Notes: a model not told the origin generated them from the sequence alone. Positions 1-11,883 are shown, counted from the first letter of the stretch. The stretch is DNA of 64,000 nucleotides from an uncultured Gammaproteobacteria bacterium (GCA_964349125.1 CAYGFH010000001.1:644801-708800); one strand, 5' to 3'. Program-made: numbers and translations.

Positions 1-73
1 GGACTCGAACCTGCGAGGGATTGCTCCCGCGCGCTTTCCAAGCGCGTGCCATAGCCACTAGGCGACTCCTCCC
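1..73 (-). tRNA. tRNA-Ser (anticodon GGA), partial; the 3' acceptor strand lies beyond the window start
   Basis: The reverse complement of 1-73 reads GGGAGGAGTCGCC...CGCGC-TTGGAAA-GCGCG...GGTTCGAGTCC. It has the D-arm, an anticodon stem-loop with U33 and GGA at positions 34-36, a long variable arm (type II tRNA) and a T-arm GGTTCGAGTCC. It is truncated by the window edge. Confidence 0.6.
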
Positions 74-1076: not shown

Positions 1077-1793
1077 AAATCGGTGTATAGCCCCATCGAT
1101 ACACGCATCCCGCTTCTCAAATTGCGGTTTATCCAGCAAAGGGAAATCACTGCCTTTCGCATCACACTTTGCAAGCAGCAGCAGAGGGATATATAAATCA
1201 GCAACAACACCGTGAAACGCATCGAATATTTCATCAGGTGCTTCACTCATCGCAGTATTCACCACCGTATTTGCCGTCATATGAAGCAGTGCCAATTGTG
1301 CGATGGTTCGGACAGTTCCCTTCGGCAGATCAAACACATGCGCCATACCTATCGTCGAAAGGGCACTATGCACCTCATGGTCGGGACAGTTTGTCATACC
1401 TGTTGCTGCATCCGTGGTGAATGTCACTGGCTTGGCGATATCATGAAACAGAATTCCGAGTCTGATCAAGTCAGCATGACTGATACCATACACATGTGTT
1501 TTCAAATACGCGGCCAGCGCCACATCATGCTTCTTTGTGGCAAAATCCAGTTCGTCCAAAAATTCTTCGAATGCAGCCAAACACGCGGTCGTGTGGTCAA
1601 ACACGCTCTGGTGGTCATGCCACGGATTTATCTCAATGCAATCTCTGAGTGTGTAGAACTCTGGGAGTATAGTCTCAAGCGATCCCCCACGGATAGCACC
1701 AGATTGTACGACGTCTTGTATACTACTGCGCAAATTCTTCATGAAGTGTTTCTCGTATAGATTTCCACCAGTCATGGGAATCAGTTGATTCAA
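1059..1793 (-). CDS. HD-domain phosphohydrolase (CCA-adding/HD superfamily-like)
   Basis: Contains the LGILFHDIAKP HD motif with a downstream His/Asp-rich region. The true start may be an internal Met, because the 5' 70 nt overlap the upstream gene. Confidence 0.55.
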   Translation of the reverse strand: MNQLIPMTGGNLYEKHFMKNLRSSIQDVVQSGAIRGGSLETILPEFYTLRDCIEINPWHDHQSVFDHTTACLAAFEEFLDELDFATKKHDVALAAYLKTHVYGISHADLIRLGILFHDIAKPVTFTTDAATGMTNCPDHEVHSALSTIGMAHVFDLPKGTVRTIAQLALLHMTANTVVNTAMSEAPDEIFDAFHGVVADLYIPLLLLAKCDAKGSDFPLLDKPQFEKRDACIDGAIHRFSLALK

Positions 1794-2469: not shown

Positions 2470-2522
2470 ATTGATAATTCTAAACTCTTCACTGTGAAGT
2501 GATTCGTTAAGACATATCAATG

Positions 2523-2594
2523 TGCTCTCGGACAGAGTCGAACTGTCATCAAAGCCTTCGGAGGGCCTCATTCTATCCATTGAACTACGAGAGC
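2523..2594 (-). tRNA. tRNA-Arg (anticodon CCG)
   Basis: The reverse complement reads GCTCTCG-TA-GTTCAATGGATAGAAT-GAGGC-CTCCGAA-GGCTT-TTGAT-GACAG-TTCGACT-CTGTC-CGAGAGC-A. The acceptor stem is a perfect 7 bp, the T-loop is TTCGACT, and the anticodon loop has U33 then CCG. Confidence 0.8.
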
Positions 2595-2635: not shown

Positions 2636-3052
2636 TTACGCCATCATTGCGAGGTCACCATGAAGAACCGTAGGTTGCATCGCATGAAGCTCTGTTATGT
2701 AATCCATATCAGGAATTGGATTGAGTAAAAACATTTTCTTGCCGAGCCAGTATGCCAACCCTATTTCTAAAAATGTGTTTCCGCCAATGTAGTTAGCAAT
2801 CCCTTTCTTGTCATAGTTGAGAACAAGTATCGCATCGGATTTTTCGATTTTTTTGAAATGTTCCCGTATGAAATCATGCTCAATTTTTGCCTCCACTTTC
2901 GCCTCATCTATAGTCGGATGCACATAGCCTATGGTATCCATGAGCTCTATGCTCTTTGGAACATATACTGTATGCCTCATCGCTTCCAAATCGAGCTTTG
3001 CTTTACTCATTTCCTTATGAAACTGCATGCTTCCACAAATAGTAATAATCAT
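2636..3052 (-). CDS. hypothetical protein (possibly nucleoside 2-deoxyribosyltransferase-like fold)
   Basis: 138 aa. The N-terminal ICGSMQF and G.NT.LE.G.A...GK pattern is reminiscent of the nucleoside deoxyribosyltransferase-like/DUF4406 family. Recalled from memory only. Confidence 0.35.
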   Translation of the reverse strand: MIITICGSMQFHKEMSKAKLDLEAMRHTVYVPKSIELMDTIGYVHPTIDEAKVEAKIEHDFIREHFKKIEKSDAILVLNYDKKGIANYIGGNTFLEIGLAYWLGKKMFLLNPIPDMDYITELHAMQPTVLHGDLAMMA

Positions 3053-5471: not shown

Positions 5472-5519
5472 TACTATATGCCCTGACACAGCAACCGTGT
5501 CAGCAGTACTATGACTGTG

Positions 5520-5591
5520 CGCTCCCGCGCAGAATCGAACTGCGATCAGAGGTTCCGCAAACCCCTATTCTATCCGTTAAACTACAGGAGC
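5520..5591 (-). tRNA. tRNA-Arg, anticodon apparently GCG (G34, not the bacterial A34/I34)
   Basis: The reverse complement reads GCTCCTG-TA-GTTTAACGGATAGAAT-A-GGGGT-TTGCGGA-ACCTC-TGAT-CGCAG-TTCGATT-CTGCG-CGGGAGC-G. The loop T32 T33 G34 C35 G36 G37 A38 is the Arg(ACG)-type context, but with G at position 34. Confidence 0.65.
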
Positions 5592-6938: not shown

Positions 6939-7652
6939 CTAAAGTTGCATATGGTGTTTAATAATGTGTTTGCACGTAGTTACTACTTTATTGAAATACG
7001 ATTCATACAATCCAAACAAACCGTAATAACTAATTATAATCACTGGAATAATTAATGGTAAATAGTATCTATACCACGTCAACTGTAAGAACGGATATAT
7101 ATACAAAAACGTAACAAAAATATATATGGCCATAAAACGCTCTACAATCGAAACTTTCAAGAATAATTTTTGAATTATAAAGTAGAATCCCAATAAAAAA
7201 CTAACTGTGTTTAAAAAAGAAGATAGCGTAATATTCCTCACAGAAGGATCAGAGCTGTTAAATATCGCCGCCCATGAAGCAATAGCTCTCTCATATGCTG
7301 AATTTATTACGGTAGTATAATTTTTCGGATCAAGTATCTGGCCAATCATCACTTCCTGCCTACTTAAAAAGTATTTCAACGTATTATCAATAGGGTGCAA
7401 ATACACCGTCGGATTGGTGATCAGCCAGATATCAAACCCGATGACCCAAATTATTGTGATATAGAATATTTTTTTGAGAAAATATTTTCTCGTAATTAGA
7501 TATTCAATTATAAAATACGCTGATATAACTATAAAAAAGGTTATTCCGGTCAGTTTTGAAGCAAATGAAAGTCCTCCTATTATTCCTGAGATAATCAAAA
7601 AACCAAGTGATTTATATTCAAGAAATAATATAAAAGCAAGCAACGCAAACAT
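6939..7652 (-). CDS. polytopic membrane protein, C-terminal portion (possible continuation of 7595-8209 after a frameshift)
   Basis: 237 aa, very hydrophobic and AT-rich. Overlaps the upstream ORF. Together the two would give a ~440-aa GT-C-like protein. Confidence 0.4.
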   Translation of the reverse strand: MFALLAFILFLEYKSLGFLIISGIIGGLSFASKLTGITFFIVISAYFIIEYLITRKYFLKKIFYITIIWVIGFDIWLITNPTVYLHPIDNTLKYFLSRQEVMIGQILDPKNYTTVINSAYERAIASWAAIFNSSDPSVRNITLSSFLNTVSFLLGFYFIIQKLFLKVSIVERFMAIYIFVTFLYIYPFLQLTWYRYYLPLIIPVIIISYYGLFGLYESYFNKVVTTCKHIIKHHMQL

Positions 7653-8209
7653 TGAAAAAAAATATAAGAAGCATCTGGTAAGGCTTTTAGCATCGATTTA
7701 ATAAATATATCGTTATTCAACAGAACAAATACGATTCCGATGGAAAACATGCTCTTGGTTAATAAAAAGAAATTTATACACACTAAGATAAGTGTTAGCC
7801 ACGTGAGAATCACACTCACATACCGCATTTGATAAATATATATTGAGAACGGTGTGCGTAAAAAATCGTCTTCGGTTTCAAATTGCCCAAAAACCCAACG
7901 TCCATAGCGAGTAATGAGATCGTCCCTTGTCTGTGTGAAATCACCATATATCGTAGTTAAGTAATACCCATACATATATCGAGACACTGGGGGATGATCA
8001 AAATTCACGTCAAATTTCCAAAATGGTGATTCAAAATCCTTATTCCGTAAAAGAGTGTAACTTTCTGTTCCATAAAAGGTATGAATTTCATCTTGATCTA
8101 ATGGGATTGTTAAAGACATTGAGTGCAACCATCCGAACAGGTACACAAAAATGACCACAACAAGGGTCCATTGTATGACGGGAAGTAGTTGCTTACAACG
8201 TAAGCTCAT
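7595..8209 (-). CDS. polytopic membrane protein, N-terminal portion (GT-C/PMT-ArnT-like)
   Basis: 204 aa. One N-terminal TM, then a loop containing a DQDEIHTFY (DE..Y-like) motif, then further TMs. Its 3' end overlaps the next ORF by 58 nt in another frame. Confidence 0.4.
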   Translation of the reverse strand: MSLRCKQLLPVIQWTLVVVIFVYLFGWLHSMSLTIPLDQDEIHTFYGTESYTLLRNKDFESPFWKFDVNFDHPPVSRYMYGYYLTTIYGDFTQTRDDLITRYGRWVFGQFETEDDFLRTPFSIYIYQMRYVSVILTWLTLILVCINFFLLTKSMFSIGIVFVLLNNDIFIKSMLKALPDASYIFFQCLRCLLLYYFLNINHLVF

Positions 8210-8315
8210 ACATATATGTATAAATGAGAATATAGTAGGTCATATTCAAAGTAGAGTATCTCATCAAATATGTGGTTTGAATATCTACTTTCTGCACGTG
8301 TGCGTATGTATTCTG

Positions 8316-8403
8316 CGGAGAGGGAGGGATTCGAACCCTCGAAGAGCTTGCGCCCTTACCTGTTTTCAAGACAGGCGCACTAGACCAACTATGCGACCTC
8401 TCC
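8316..8403 (-). tRNA. tRNA-Ser (anticodon TGA)
   Basis: The reverse complement reads GGAGAGG-TC-GCAT-AGTTGGTCTAGTGC-G-CCTGT-CTTGAAA-ACAGG-long variable arm-GAGGG-TTCGAAT-CCCTC-CCTCTCC-G. Length 88 nt, type II. Confidence 0.8.
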
Positions 8404-8438
8404 CGCGATGACAATACTATTCATTATACATTGACGTG

Positions 8439-8527
8439 CGGAGGAGGTGGGATTTGAACCCACGCGAGCCTTATTCAGGCTCAAGGGTTTAGCAAACCCT
8501 CGCAATGGACCGCTATGCGACTCCTCC
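8439..8527 (-). tRNA. tRNA-Ser (anticodon GCT)
   Basis: The reverse complement reads GGAGGAG-TC-GCAT-AGCGGTCCATTGC-G-AGGGT-TTGCTAA-ACCCT-variable arm-GTGGG-TTCAAAT-CCCAC-CTCCTCC-G. Length 89 nt. Confidence 0.8.
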
Positions 8528-8619: not shown

Positions 8620-8657
8620 GCGCAGTATTACCGAATGAGGCTGAACATTGTATAATG
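8620..8657 (+). promoter_or_regulatory. candidate sigma70-type promoter for the plus-strand tRNA (-10 TATAAT at 8651-8656, preceded by TG)
   Basis: CATTGTATAATGAG lies 22 nt upstream of the mature tRNA 5' end at 8679. Confidence 0.35.
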
Positions 8658-8678: not shown

Positions 8679-8763
8679 GGAGAGGTCGCATAGTGGTCTA
8701 GTGCAGCGGTTTACTAAACCGCCGAATCGCAAGATTCCGCGAGTTCAAATCTCGCCCTCTCCG
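8679..8763 (+). tRNA. tRNA-Ser-like (type II), anticodon apparently ACT (A34)
   Basis: GGAGAGG-TC-GCAT-AGTGGTCTAGTGC-A-GCGGT-TTACTAA-ACCGC-variable arm-GCGAG-TTCAAAT-CTCGC-CCTCTCC-G(CA). Stems are perfect. The loop is identical to the neighbouring tRNA-Ser(GCT) except A instead of G at position 34. Confidence 0.6.
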
Positions 8764-8839
8764 CAACGAATATCACTGTGCCCCACTCTTCAGATTCTGT
8801 ATTGTAAATCACAAATAAAACTCCTACTATATACTGAGT

Positions 8840-10609: not shown

Positions 10610-10906
10610 TTATTTGATCTCTCCCATATCCACTCTTAAGAAATTTTTCTCGAGCTTTTGCATCTCGCCTATGTATGAAGTATTCGTAATGAAGTATTCG
10701 TAATGAAGTATTCGTAATGAAGTATTCGTAATGAAGTAATTTGAAGAGGGTTCGTAGTCGTGTTGAGGGGACATGGTCATTTGCATGTTACTCAGTCTCT
10801 TTTTTAAATTAGTGGAAAAACCAATATATAATCCGCCGTCCTTAACGGACCGTAATATATAAACGTAATACCGCTGTGTAGAAGAAACGTCTGACGTTTC
10901 TAGCAT
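10610..10906 (-). CDS. GIY-YIG domain small protein, C-terminus disrupted by a 14-bp tandem repeat (possibly degenerate)
   Basis: YYVYILRSVKDGGLYIGFSTNLKKRL matches the GIY-YIG N-terminal half. Downstream, the reading frame runs through repeated YEYFITNTS blocks instead of the usual conserved C-terminal half. Confidence 0.45.
   Translation of the reverse strand: MLETSDVSSTQRYYVYILRSVKDGGLYIGFSTNLKKRLSNMQMTMSPQHDYEPSSNYFITNTSLRILHYEYFITNTSYIGEMQKLEKNFLRVDMGEIK
10676..10739. repeat. 14-bp tandem repeat (TGAAGTATTCGTAA) x about 4.5
   Basis: Directly visible at 10676-10739. Three units equal 42 bp, so the frame is retained per three units. Confidence 0.85.
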
Positions 10907-10976: not shown

Positions 10977-11395
10977 TGGTGGAGATGCCGAGTATTGAGC
11001 TCGGGTCCGAATAGAGTAACTAAAAACGTCTACAAGCGTAGTCCATTTTATTTTCCCCGCCTACCTATAAATGGACAAAGTAGTTGGCGGAGAGGGTTGA
11101 CCAAACGTGCGCCGAACGTAATAGGTCTGTTACGTCCTGATGTCCCGGCTAAGTTTTAACCTCTCCCGACTCACCGGAAAAAATCAAAGAGAGATTGCTT
11201 TACGCAAAAAGATATGCTCTTTGTGCGGAAGCCCCTGTCAAACTTGCCAATTTCTGCTCGAGAGCAGCAATATAGCGGCTTGAAAGGGAGTCTGTTGATT
11301 CCTCAGCAGATAAATTTTGAACCTGTTTTACGACTATTGTTCAAAGTCGGCTTGCTGTTTTTAATGTGCTGCCATCCGTCGAATCATTCATCCCC
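10977..11395 (-). ncRNA. ssrA: tmRNA (ssrA)
   Basis: The minus-strand 5' end GGGGATGAATGATTCGACGG (reverse complement of 11376-11395) matches the tmRNA 5' consensus GGGGcTGAttcgGATTCGACGG. The 3' end CCGAG-CTCAATA-CTCGG-CATCTCC-A-CCA (reverse complement of 10977-11008) forms a T-arm plus acceptor with encoded CCA that pairs with the 5' GGGGATG. It lies immediately upstream, on the same strand, of smpB. About 419 nt. Confidence 0.7.
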
Positions 11396-11439: not shown

Positions 11440-11883
11440 CTACTTAACTTTCCCCCGAAATTCCCGATCAAGCTCCCGTCGCAAAATTTCTTTTTTCTTG
11501 GAATCACGTTTTTCAAACTGTTTTTTCCCTTTTGCGACAGCTATCTCAAGCTTTATTCGAGGACCCTTAGTATACCAAGAGACAGGAATGACGGTCAAAT
11601 TCGCACCCCCAAGCTTAATTTGTATACGAAGCAATTCCCGTTTATGGAGAAGTAATTTTCGCGTCCGTTTTGGATCATAATGGTCTGGTCTCGCGTACTG
11701 GTATGCAAAAATTTGTGCGTTTAAAAGATATGCCTCCCCATCGATAATCCTCACGAATGCCCCCTCCAGAGATGCATGTCCGGCTTTTACAGATTTCACC
11801 TCCATGCCCAATAGAGACACCCCTGCCTCAAACCGTTCAAGGATCGTATAGTCAAATGTAGCTTTCCTATTCACTATTCCCAT
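11440..11883 (-). CDS. smpB: SsrA-binding protein SmpB
   Basis: 147 aa. GIVNRKATFDY...LLGMEVKS...LLLHKRE and a basic C-terminal tail match SmpB. Confidence 0.85.
   Translation of the reverse strand: MGIVNRKATFDYTILERFEAGVSLLGMEVKSVKAGHASLEGAFVRIIDGEAYLLNAQIFAYQYARPDHYDPKRTRKLLLHKRELLRIQIKLGGANLTVIPVSWYTKGPRIKLEIAVAKGKKQFEKRDSKKKEILRRELDREFRGKVK

Follow-up and report, generated by a model that had tools for sequence, protein, structure and literature searches.

A complete class II tRNA-Ser gene with the anticodon ACU was found in the window, the whole stretch of 64,000 nucleotides analysed in this study. The gene is real, full-length, conserved, covarying and Ser-like, and by sequence comparison the ACU genes form an orthologous family of their own, old and distinct from tRNA-Ser(GCU). 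We propose, with a probability of roughly 0.7, that it acts as a serine-charged decoder dedicated to AGU with an unmodified A34, and that it is a functional isoacceptor across the Patescibacteria (CPR); its expression, its charging with serine, the unmodified state of A34 and the AGU-specific decoding are the parts of this proposal that we infer. The gene and its parts are located as follows.

8679-8764, plus strand: tRNA-Ser(ACU) gene, class II, 86 nt up to the base after the discriminator G73 (ARAGORN, Rfam, fold and four assemblies)
8713-8715, plus strand: anticodon ACT, corresponding to A34, C35 and U36 (sequence; ARAGORN places the anticodon from gene position 35)
8706-8722, plus strand: anticodon arm GCGGT-TTACTAA-ACCGC (sequence; stem pairs 100% paired in 110 homologues)
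8723-8738, plus strand: long variable region with a 5-bp stem GAATC/GATTC, a hallmark of class II and Ser tRNAs (fold)
8651-8656, plus strand: perfect TATAAT hexamer, candidate -10 box, 22 nt upstream of the tRNA 5' end

The region 8679-8764(+) was called as tRNA-Ser(act) by ARAGORN and matches the full length of the Rfam model RF00005 with 54.2 bits (E=7e-9). The predicted fold is a cloverleaf of -37 kcal/mol (z=-4.8), a stability that none of 200 shuffled sequences matched. The layout of the gene is GGAGAGG-TC-GCAT...GTGC-A-GCGGT-TTACTAA-ACCGC-[CGAATCGCAAGATTCC]-GCGAG-TTCAAAT-CTCGC-CCTCTCC-G, which contains an acceptor stem of 7 bp (GGAGAGG/CCTCTCC), the T-arm GCGAG/CTCGC and a discriminator G, and it agrees with the canonical bacterial cloverleaf in its 7-bp acceptor, its 5-bp anticodon and T stems and its T-loop GTTCRAATC. 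No CCA is encoded in the sequence at the 3' end. A preliminary description of this DNA had reported a type II, Ser-like tRNA with an ACU anticodon, a 7-bp acceptor, the anticodon stem GCGGT/ACCGC and a long variable arm; all of these are seen in the sequence and the fold, and ARAGORN, suggested there as a check, gives the same ACT anticodon. The wobble A, which had been placed at 8714, is actually at 8713.

The same description had counted five Ser-type tRNAs, for GGA, CGA, UGA, GCU and ACU. All five are real, and the other four are found on the minus strand, together with an Arg tRNA that is also listed here.

8438-8527, minus strand: tRNA-Ser(GCU), the canonical AGY decoder, a divergent neighbour 151 nt off (ARAGORN, Rfam and alignment)
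8315-8403, minus strand: tRNA-Ser(UGA) (ARAGORN and alignment)
5519-5591, minus strand: tRNA-Arg(GCG), in place of the usual TadA substrate Arg(ACG) (ARAGORN; PMC8629427)
5382-5471, minus strand: tRNA-Ser(CGA), in a conserved Ser/Arg tRNA cluster (ARAGORN)
1-72, minus strand: tRNA-Ser(GGA), cut by the window edge and complete in L001:1149-1233 (partial Rfam match, alignment, and ARAGORN on L001)

The Ser/Arg tRNA cluster of the window recurs in four other loci (L047, L051, L055 and L066), and this cluster was observed to be syntenic across several CPR contigs of about 1 Mb. The 3.5-kb Levyibacteriota contig L051 carries two Ser(ACU) genes with different D-arms, at 1623-1708(-) and 2709-2794(+), in addition to two Ser(UGA), one Ser(GCU), one Ser(CGA) and one Arg(GCG), which amounts to a local duplication of the Ser cluster.

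The anticodon loop of Ser(ACU) had been described as being like that of the neighbouring Ser(GCU), and the alignment confirms the shared context. U32, U33, A37 and A38 are those of Ser(GCU), and the loop context common to the two tRNAs is GGTTTNCTAAACC. In the thermodynamic fold, the anticodon stem was extended to 7 bp with a 3-nt loop in both the ACU arm (8706-8722) and the GCU arm (8473-8489), because U32-A38 and U33-A37 are complementary; a modification of A37 such as t6A would presumably be needed to obtain an open 7-nt loop in both tRNAs.

The wobble base decides against a sequencing or assembly error, in which the true base would be G and the gene an ordinary GCU gene. This reading, for which the prior rarity of the ACU anticodon is the sole argument, is extremely improbable. 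The base at the wobble position, where a G would have spoken for an ordinary Ser(GCU), is A in four independent assemblies (two from ENA and two from Logan runs), and this agreement refutes the error reading. The exact sequence of the DUF1761 protein flanking the tRNA was found in the 809-kb ENA contig (ERZ27247837 k141_2193826) and in three short contigs from other assemblies or runs, all four of which carry an identical tRNA, A34 included. The same anticodon also occurs in a related species and in hundreds of other contigs, and a GCU gene in its own right, with another body, is present in this genome as well.

The tRNA is also seen in two close relatives. The contig L005, from another sample and with a DUF1761 protein 86% identical to that of the window, begins inside the tRNA, and the 70 nt that are present equal those of the window with TTTACTAAA included; the 3' flank has diverged despite the identical tRNA. 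In the second relative (DUF1761 88% identical), the 3' end of the tRNA is identical to that of the window. At 73-74% DUF1761 protein identity the neighbourhood is different and no tRNA was found nearby, so that synteny with DUF1761 is informative for the two closest relatives only (L005 and L006). Four Logan contigs from four runs start at or inside the ACU tRNA (L002:1, L004:1, L005:1 and L006:1). The first 26 nt of this tRNA are nearly identical to Ser(UGA) at 8315-8403, so that the assembly graph probably branches here, and such branching could lose or truncate the Ser(ACU) gene in fragmented MAGs.

The source contig is very probably that of a Microgenomates-type member of the Patescibacteria, an assignment based on record and protein names rather than on phylogeny. 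Among its genes are a tmRNA, SmpB, a ComF-like protein, thiamine pyrophosphokinase, DUF5657 and a T4SS-pilin-like protein. Levyibacteriota and Shapirobacteria are the sources of the named DUF1761 homologues, and bodies matching that of the Ser(ACU) tRNA are found in MAGs of Microgenomates, Levybacteria and Gottesmanbacteria.

The distribution of the gene was examined in a scan of one genome per species (GTDB) with a pattern consisting of GGTTTACTAAACC, a gap of class II length and a T-loop. A total of at least 120 loci were found; ARAGORN called Ser(act) in 118 of the 120 listed, and the other two were cut at contig ends. The comparison with related genomes that had been suggested for this tRNA accordingly places Ser(ACU) in at least 118 species-level genomes. 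Among the matches listed, the carriers are mostly labelled as Patescibacteria, with the labels Paceibacterota, Nomurabacteria, Saccharibacteria, Microgenomates, Levyibacteriota and Minisyncoccia as well as Gottesman-, Roizman-, Woese-, Taylor- and Zambryskibacteria. About fifteen of the listed carriers are labelled as uncultured Gammaproteobacteria or Pseudomonadales. These labels are thought to be unreliable, since most of these carriers have the Microgenomates-type body, and two of them (L047 and L055) share the Ser/Arg cluster of the window. The matches listed comprise 116 distinct Ser(ACU) sequences with two main body types, and 67 of the 118 listed ACU loci have a Ser(GCU) gene within the same 8-kb locus at a median gap of 215 nt. 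When position 34 was left free (N) in a scan of metagenomes, 107 GCU and four ACU genes (3.6%) were among the 120 matches listed. The ACU gene is a minority overall, as expected of a lineage-restricted gene.

The cloverleaf was found to be under selection, with strong compensatory covariation, in an alignment of 110 distinct Ser(ACU) copies, for which a hand-written cloverleaf of 26 pairs was used. In this alignment 96.7% of the cells are in standard pairs, nineteen of the 26 pairs have changed on both sides, and 599 cells are compensatory; none of 500 shuffles reached any of the observed measures. The covariation was 0.564, compared to at most 0.12 for controls slid by one to three columns. 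The helix of the variable arm (helix 4) is 96.2% paired, with changes on both sides in all five pairs. The loop and the inner three pairs of the anticodon stem are invariant because the search pattern fixed them.

By every sequence test applied, Ser(ACU) is a bacterial class II tRNA-Ser. G73 is invariant in 110 of 110 aligned copies, all of which keep the long variable arm, and A73 is found in the Leu and Tyr tRNAs of these loci. All sixty of the sampled ACU bodies, compared without the anticodon arm, were nearest to Ser (0.80, versus 0.64 for Leu and 0.65 for Tyr). A check of the identity elements had been advised in the preliminary description, and the discriminator G and the stem of the variable arm are as in Ser. 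A non-serine identity, which it had offered as one possible explanation, is contradicted by G73, the long variable arm and the sixty Ser-like bodies, as far as sequence tells.

A second explanation offered there, a recently mutated duplicate of the neighbouring gene, does not hold either. With the anticodon arm masked, an ACU gene and the GCU gene in the same locus share an identity of 0.61, which is the background level between Ser isoacceptors, and the best match of an ACU gene among the others of its kind averages 0.92. Under the same masking the nearest neighbour is another ACU gene for 119 of 120 ACU genes, and for 188 of 193 genes in a larger leave-one-out test; leave-one-out was used, and the reference GCU genes are all from CPR, so that a classification of the metagenome GCU genes against them is uninformative. 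The four ACU genes from the position-34-free scan match known ACU bodies at 0.75-0.97. A recent G34A derivative of GCU is excluded by the own-locus identity of 0.61 and by the separate clustering of the ACU genes, and the occurrence in at least 118 species-level genomes, together with the compensatory changes in the stems, also speaks against it. What the evidence favours among the options put forward earlier is a second AGY decoder with altered wobble behaviour, in the form of a conserved Ser-like family apart from GCU.

The 5' half of the ACU gene has a different affinity. It was observed to have a mean identity of 0.82 to the Ser(UGA) of the same genome, versus 0.66 to GCU (n=10), and in the window the first 26 nt, comprising the acceptor stem and the D-arm, are 0.96 identical to Ser(UGA). 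Such a UGA-like 5' half might reflect concerted evolution or a chimeric origin of the gene.

We also considered whether the gene could be a tRNA-like element that does not function in translation, such as a pseudogene, a recent G34A mutant, an integration fragment or an extra-ribosomal tRNA. Split-box tRNAs with anticodons starting with A (ANN) are usually sporadic in databases, and some odd predictions are fragments (PMC9897764; Raval et al. 2026), which would fit such an element. The gene studied here is full-length with a high model score (54 bits), it belongs to a distinct orthologous family that occurs in 118 species or more and whose stems all show compensatory changes, and it has a canonical T-arm and acceptor stem with an anticodon loop identical to that of a working AGY decoder. 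These properties make a non-functional gene very unlikely.

In the reading that we prefer, Ser(ACU) would be transcribed on its own and matured by RNase P and CCA addition. The TATAAT hexamer at 8651-8656 lies upstream of the gene, and no good -35 box was seen upstream of it. Boxes resembling -10 elements were found 8-40 nt upstream of 59 of 102 ACU genes, compared to 30 of 102 shuffled controls. The hexamer and the excess of such boxes lend modest support to independent transcription. SerRS would then charge the tRNA with serine through its class II variable arm and G73. A34 would stay unmodified and pair in Watson-Crick fashion with AGU, and AGC, AGA and AGG would be read poorly or not at all. 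In AT-rich, AGU-preferring CPR genomes the tRNA would thereby supplement the G:U wobble reading of AGU by Ser(GCU).

An unmodified A34 is rare in bacteria, as had been stated earlier and is correct. That A34 stays unmodified is proposed here because the CPR use Arg(GCG) and appear to be without a TadA/inosine system. Arg(GCG) occurs in the window and in nine CPR loci, and among the 120 genome loci listed there are nine Arg(gcg) and no Arg(acg). Arg(GCG) and Arg(CCG) were located at 5519-5591(-) and 2522-2594(-) in the window and were also observed in L047, L051, L055, L057 and L066. The use of GCG for the CGY codons is an archaeal-style solution and agrees with a remark of Shulgina & Eddy (2021), according to whom the CPR appear to have no Arg-ACG gene and some deep-branching bacteria make no use of wobble inosine. 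No TadA was seen in the 64-kb window of the genome of about 809 kb or in about 0.9 Mb of CPR loci, using tblastn with an approximate E. coli query and a scan for the zinc-deaminase motif, a search of low power.

The alternative is that A34 is converted to inosine by a TadA-like or other deaminase, by which the resulting ICU anticodon would read AGU, AGC and potentially AGA, making the tRNA a broad decoder of AGY. Between the loop UACU and the TadA target UACG, position 36 is the sole difference, and Phe-AAA, the one split-box ANN tRNA that was sequenced, was deaminated in E. coli (A-to-I inferred; Raval et al. 2026). That one position is nevertheless where the Ser(ACU) loop, with U36, departs from the TadA substrate U33-A34-C35-G36. 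When an M. jannaschii tRNA was given the ACU anticodon in E. coli, which has TadA, no inosine was found (Schmitt et al. 2024, PMC11066159). The apparent lack of Arg(ACG) in CPR, which use Arg(GCG), also argues against inosine, and ICU would lead to misreading of AGA, which the carriers use often for Arg (12-17 per 1000 codons). We consider the conversion to inosine unlikely.

One CPR locus bears directly on this question. L064:1215-1733(-) encodes a 172-aa protein with the dCMP/cytidine-deaminase fold (HAE...PCxxC; Pfam PF00383), and this gene lies 56 nt upstream of Ser(ACU) on the same strand, as might be expected of a dedicated modifier of A34. The protein scored 17.5 bits versus a cut-off of 150 for the NCBIfam TadA model and is of the dCMP/ComEB type, and no homologue of it was found beside any other ACU gene in 3.46 Mb. 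A role as dedicated A34 modifier was therefore rejected.

The decoding expected of an unmodified ACU anticodon is known from constructs in E. coli. The engineered ACU tRNA read AGU at 9.4% and AGG at 0.36%, with AGC and AGA below detection and a U:C ratio of at least 95:5 (PMC11066159). Overexpressed Ser-tRNA(ACU) improved the lag, growth rate and yield of E. coli in at least two media (Raval et al. 2026 preprint); the majority of the other split-box ANN tRNAs in that study had no effect or did harm. In vitro, all four codons were read by a Gly tRNA with an unmodified A34 (Boren 1993, as related in PMC11066159). Misreading of AGA and AGG is for this reason a risk, one that depends on the tRNA and ribosome context.

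Codon usage in the carriers was found to be AT-rich, with a GC3 of 0.34-0.35 and an AGU to AGC ratio of about 2:1; the loci with GCU only have a GC3 of 0.62 and an AGU fraction of 0.29. The codons of the window include 177 AGU, 178 AGC and 220 AGA. The AGU preference of the carriers is consistent with the reading of Ser(ACU) as an AGU decoder, and it is not diagnostic. No excess of AGU beyond the general NNU bias was observed in the carriers, and AGU equals AGC in the window, so codon demand alone does not explain the retention of Ser(ACU).

Ser(ACU) genes were also found in viral contigs. The A34 pattern gave at least 120 matches in IMG/VR, and all of the 120 listed were called as Ser(act) by ARAGORN. 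Most of these genes are within tRNA arrays of up to 21 genes that are rich in UNN anticodons, the array tRNAs among the matches listed including 69 Asn-GUU, 65 Thr-UGU, 63 Gln-UUG and 51 Arg-UCU. The sampled viral loci contain phage-type genes, for example a portal protein and a DNA ligase. The viral and CPR bodies have a mean identity of 0.58. Four genome matches from outside the CPR, namely those in Flavobacteriales (L045), Pirellulales (L081), Verrucomicrobiota (L119) and Lactiplantibacillus (L129), have viral copies as their closest matches and probably represent phages or prophages. No cultured phage with Ser(ACU) was identified when the viral and window tRNAs were compared by BLAST with 50,697 deposited phage genomes; those matches that were inspected proved to be genes for Ser(UGA) or Ser(GCU), and nothing matched the copies of the window and of L129. 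BLAST cannot select for the anticodon, and this result is therefore no evidence of absence.

With position 34 left free, A was found in 26 of the 120 viral matches listed (22%), about six times the fraction in metagenomes. Ser(GCU) occurs just once among the 120 viral ACU loci listed, and in the phage arrays Ser(ACU) would be the phage's own AGY tRNA. Evasion of host tRNA-targeting defences by phage tRNAs is an established concept. The roughly six-fold enrichment among the matches listed (22% versus 3.6%) and the replacement of GCU by ACU in the arrays would also suit a tRNA kept as a back-up or as an escape isoacceptor that anticodon nucleases or toxins directed against Ser(GCU) do not affect, particularly for the phage copies. 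No nuclease or toxin gene linked to the tRNA was found in this analysis, the CPR chromosomes have an intact GCU gene beside ACU, and an AT-rich, AGU-preferring codon usage is the simpler account. Such an escape function seems quite unlikely, and a decoder dedicated to AGU is preferred for the phage copies as for the chromosomal ones.

Several known systems resemble Ser(ACU) in part. The closest is Ser(GCU), which has the same class II Ser body, G73, the loop U32 U33 N C U A37 A38 and the same codon box, and is often nearby. Ser(ACU) differs from it in having A34, in forming a separate family and in being expected to read AGU only instead of AGC plus AGU. An encoded A34 in a reduced genome is also known from Mycoplasma tRNA-Thr(AGU) and yeast mitochondrial tRNA-Arg(ACG) (PMC3711424; PMC11066159), and these two lineages, like the CPR, are without wobble inosine or thought to be so. 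Those tRNAs, however, serve four-fold boxes in which reading all four codons is harmless, whereas Ser(ACU) belongs to a split Ser/Arg box, where reading all four codons would give Ser-for-Arg errors. Nor is it the sole decoder of its box, as Ser(GCU) coexists with it and AGA and AGG are common Arg codons.

The TadA-dependent tRNA-Arg(ACG->ICG) shares the encoded A34 and a loop U-A-C-N-A one position apart. Ser(ACU) differs in having U36, its host uses Arg(GCG), and inosine is not expected in it. The engineered ACU tRNAs have the same anticodon and were unmodified, highly AGU-specific and neutral or beneficial (PMC11066159; Raval et al. 2026), but they were E. coli constructs on an M. jannaschii Tyr or an E. 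coli Ser(GCU) body, whereas Ser(ACU) is natural, ancient and conserved. Finally, the viral Ser(ACU) genes sit among UNN tRNAs in the manner typical of AT-rich phages that supplement host decoding. The window copy differs from these in being chromosomal, on a CPR contig of about 809 kb near tmRNA, SmpB and other Ser tRNAs, and in having another body type.

The near-absence of anticodons starting with A is a long-standing open question. Seven split-box ANN tRNAs were described as 'universally absent' by Raval et al. (2026), who constructed such tRNAs artificially for their study, found split-box ANN tRNAs to be no more than sporadic in the 4,047 bacterial genomes of GtRNAdb, and mention neither the CPR nor any phage Ser(ACU). 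Only Ser-ACU and Ile-AAU improved growth among the split-box ANN tRNAs in that study, and Ser-ACU is the most U-specific ANN anticodon in laboratory tests. The literature searched gave no account of a Ser(ACU) family that occurs naturally in bacteria or phages, and a prior mention is possible; in public CPR genomes the genes presumably bear a tRNA-Ser annotation already.

We lean slightly towards the wider claim that in the whole CPR superphylum, and in a considerable share of the phages that carry tRNAs, a Ser-ACU tRNA with unmodified A34 is in routine use for AGU. If this is true, it breaks the universal exclusion of split-box ANN tRNAs stated by reviews and by the 2026 study, and together with Arg(GCG) and Ile(UAU) it points to a distinct CPR decoding without wobble inosine. 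A conserved natural Ser(ACU) would surprise a decoding specialist, and the family provides a natural system for the study of A34 decoding, AGA/AGG fidelity and modification state, in which the reason for the avoidance of A34 becomes testable. For annotation, a Ser(ACT) call in a CPR or phage genome is not to be dismissed as an error.

Other unusual anticodons were observed in the fetched loci. Out of 2,301 ARAGORN calls, the remaining anticodons starting with A were Thr-AGU (four), Leu-AAG (three), His-AUG (two), and Phe-AAA, Val-AAC and Gly-ACC (one each), and they fall in the viral and metagenome scan loci (L130-L470). tRNA-Ile(UAU), an anticodon listed as lost in prokaryotes (Ehrlich et al. 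2021), was found five times in the CPR genome set (for example at L046:1780-1854(+) and L068:508-581(-)) and in 21 viral loci. The joint occurrence of Ile(UAU), Arg(GCG) and Ser(ACU) suggests an unusual anticodon repertoire in CPR.

The remaining observations concern the neighbourhood of the tRNA in the window. A tmRNA is located at 10977-11395(-), with an Rfam score of 108 bits over the full model, and adjoins the SmpB ORF at 11440-11883(-); ARAGORN gave no call for it, though this program also looks for tmRNA. A GIY-YIG-domain ORF at 10610-10906(-) contains an internal duplication of the peptide YFITNTS and looks disrupted compared to its 97-aa homologue in L005. Two overlapping hydrophobic ORFs without a Pfam match, 6939-7652(-) and 7595-8209(-), lie directly upstream of the Ser tRNA pair and may be a single membrane protein split by a frameshift. 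The motif TGTATTGTAAAT[C/T]ACA occurs upstream of the DUF1761 gene in the window (8798-8813) and in both close relatives (L005:~106-121 and L006:~551-566), where it is kept in all three species while the spacer around it diverges, and it is a candidate promoter or operator of DUF1761 that is separate from the tRNA.
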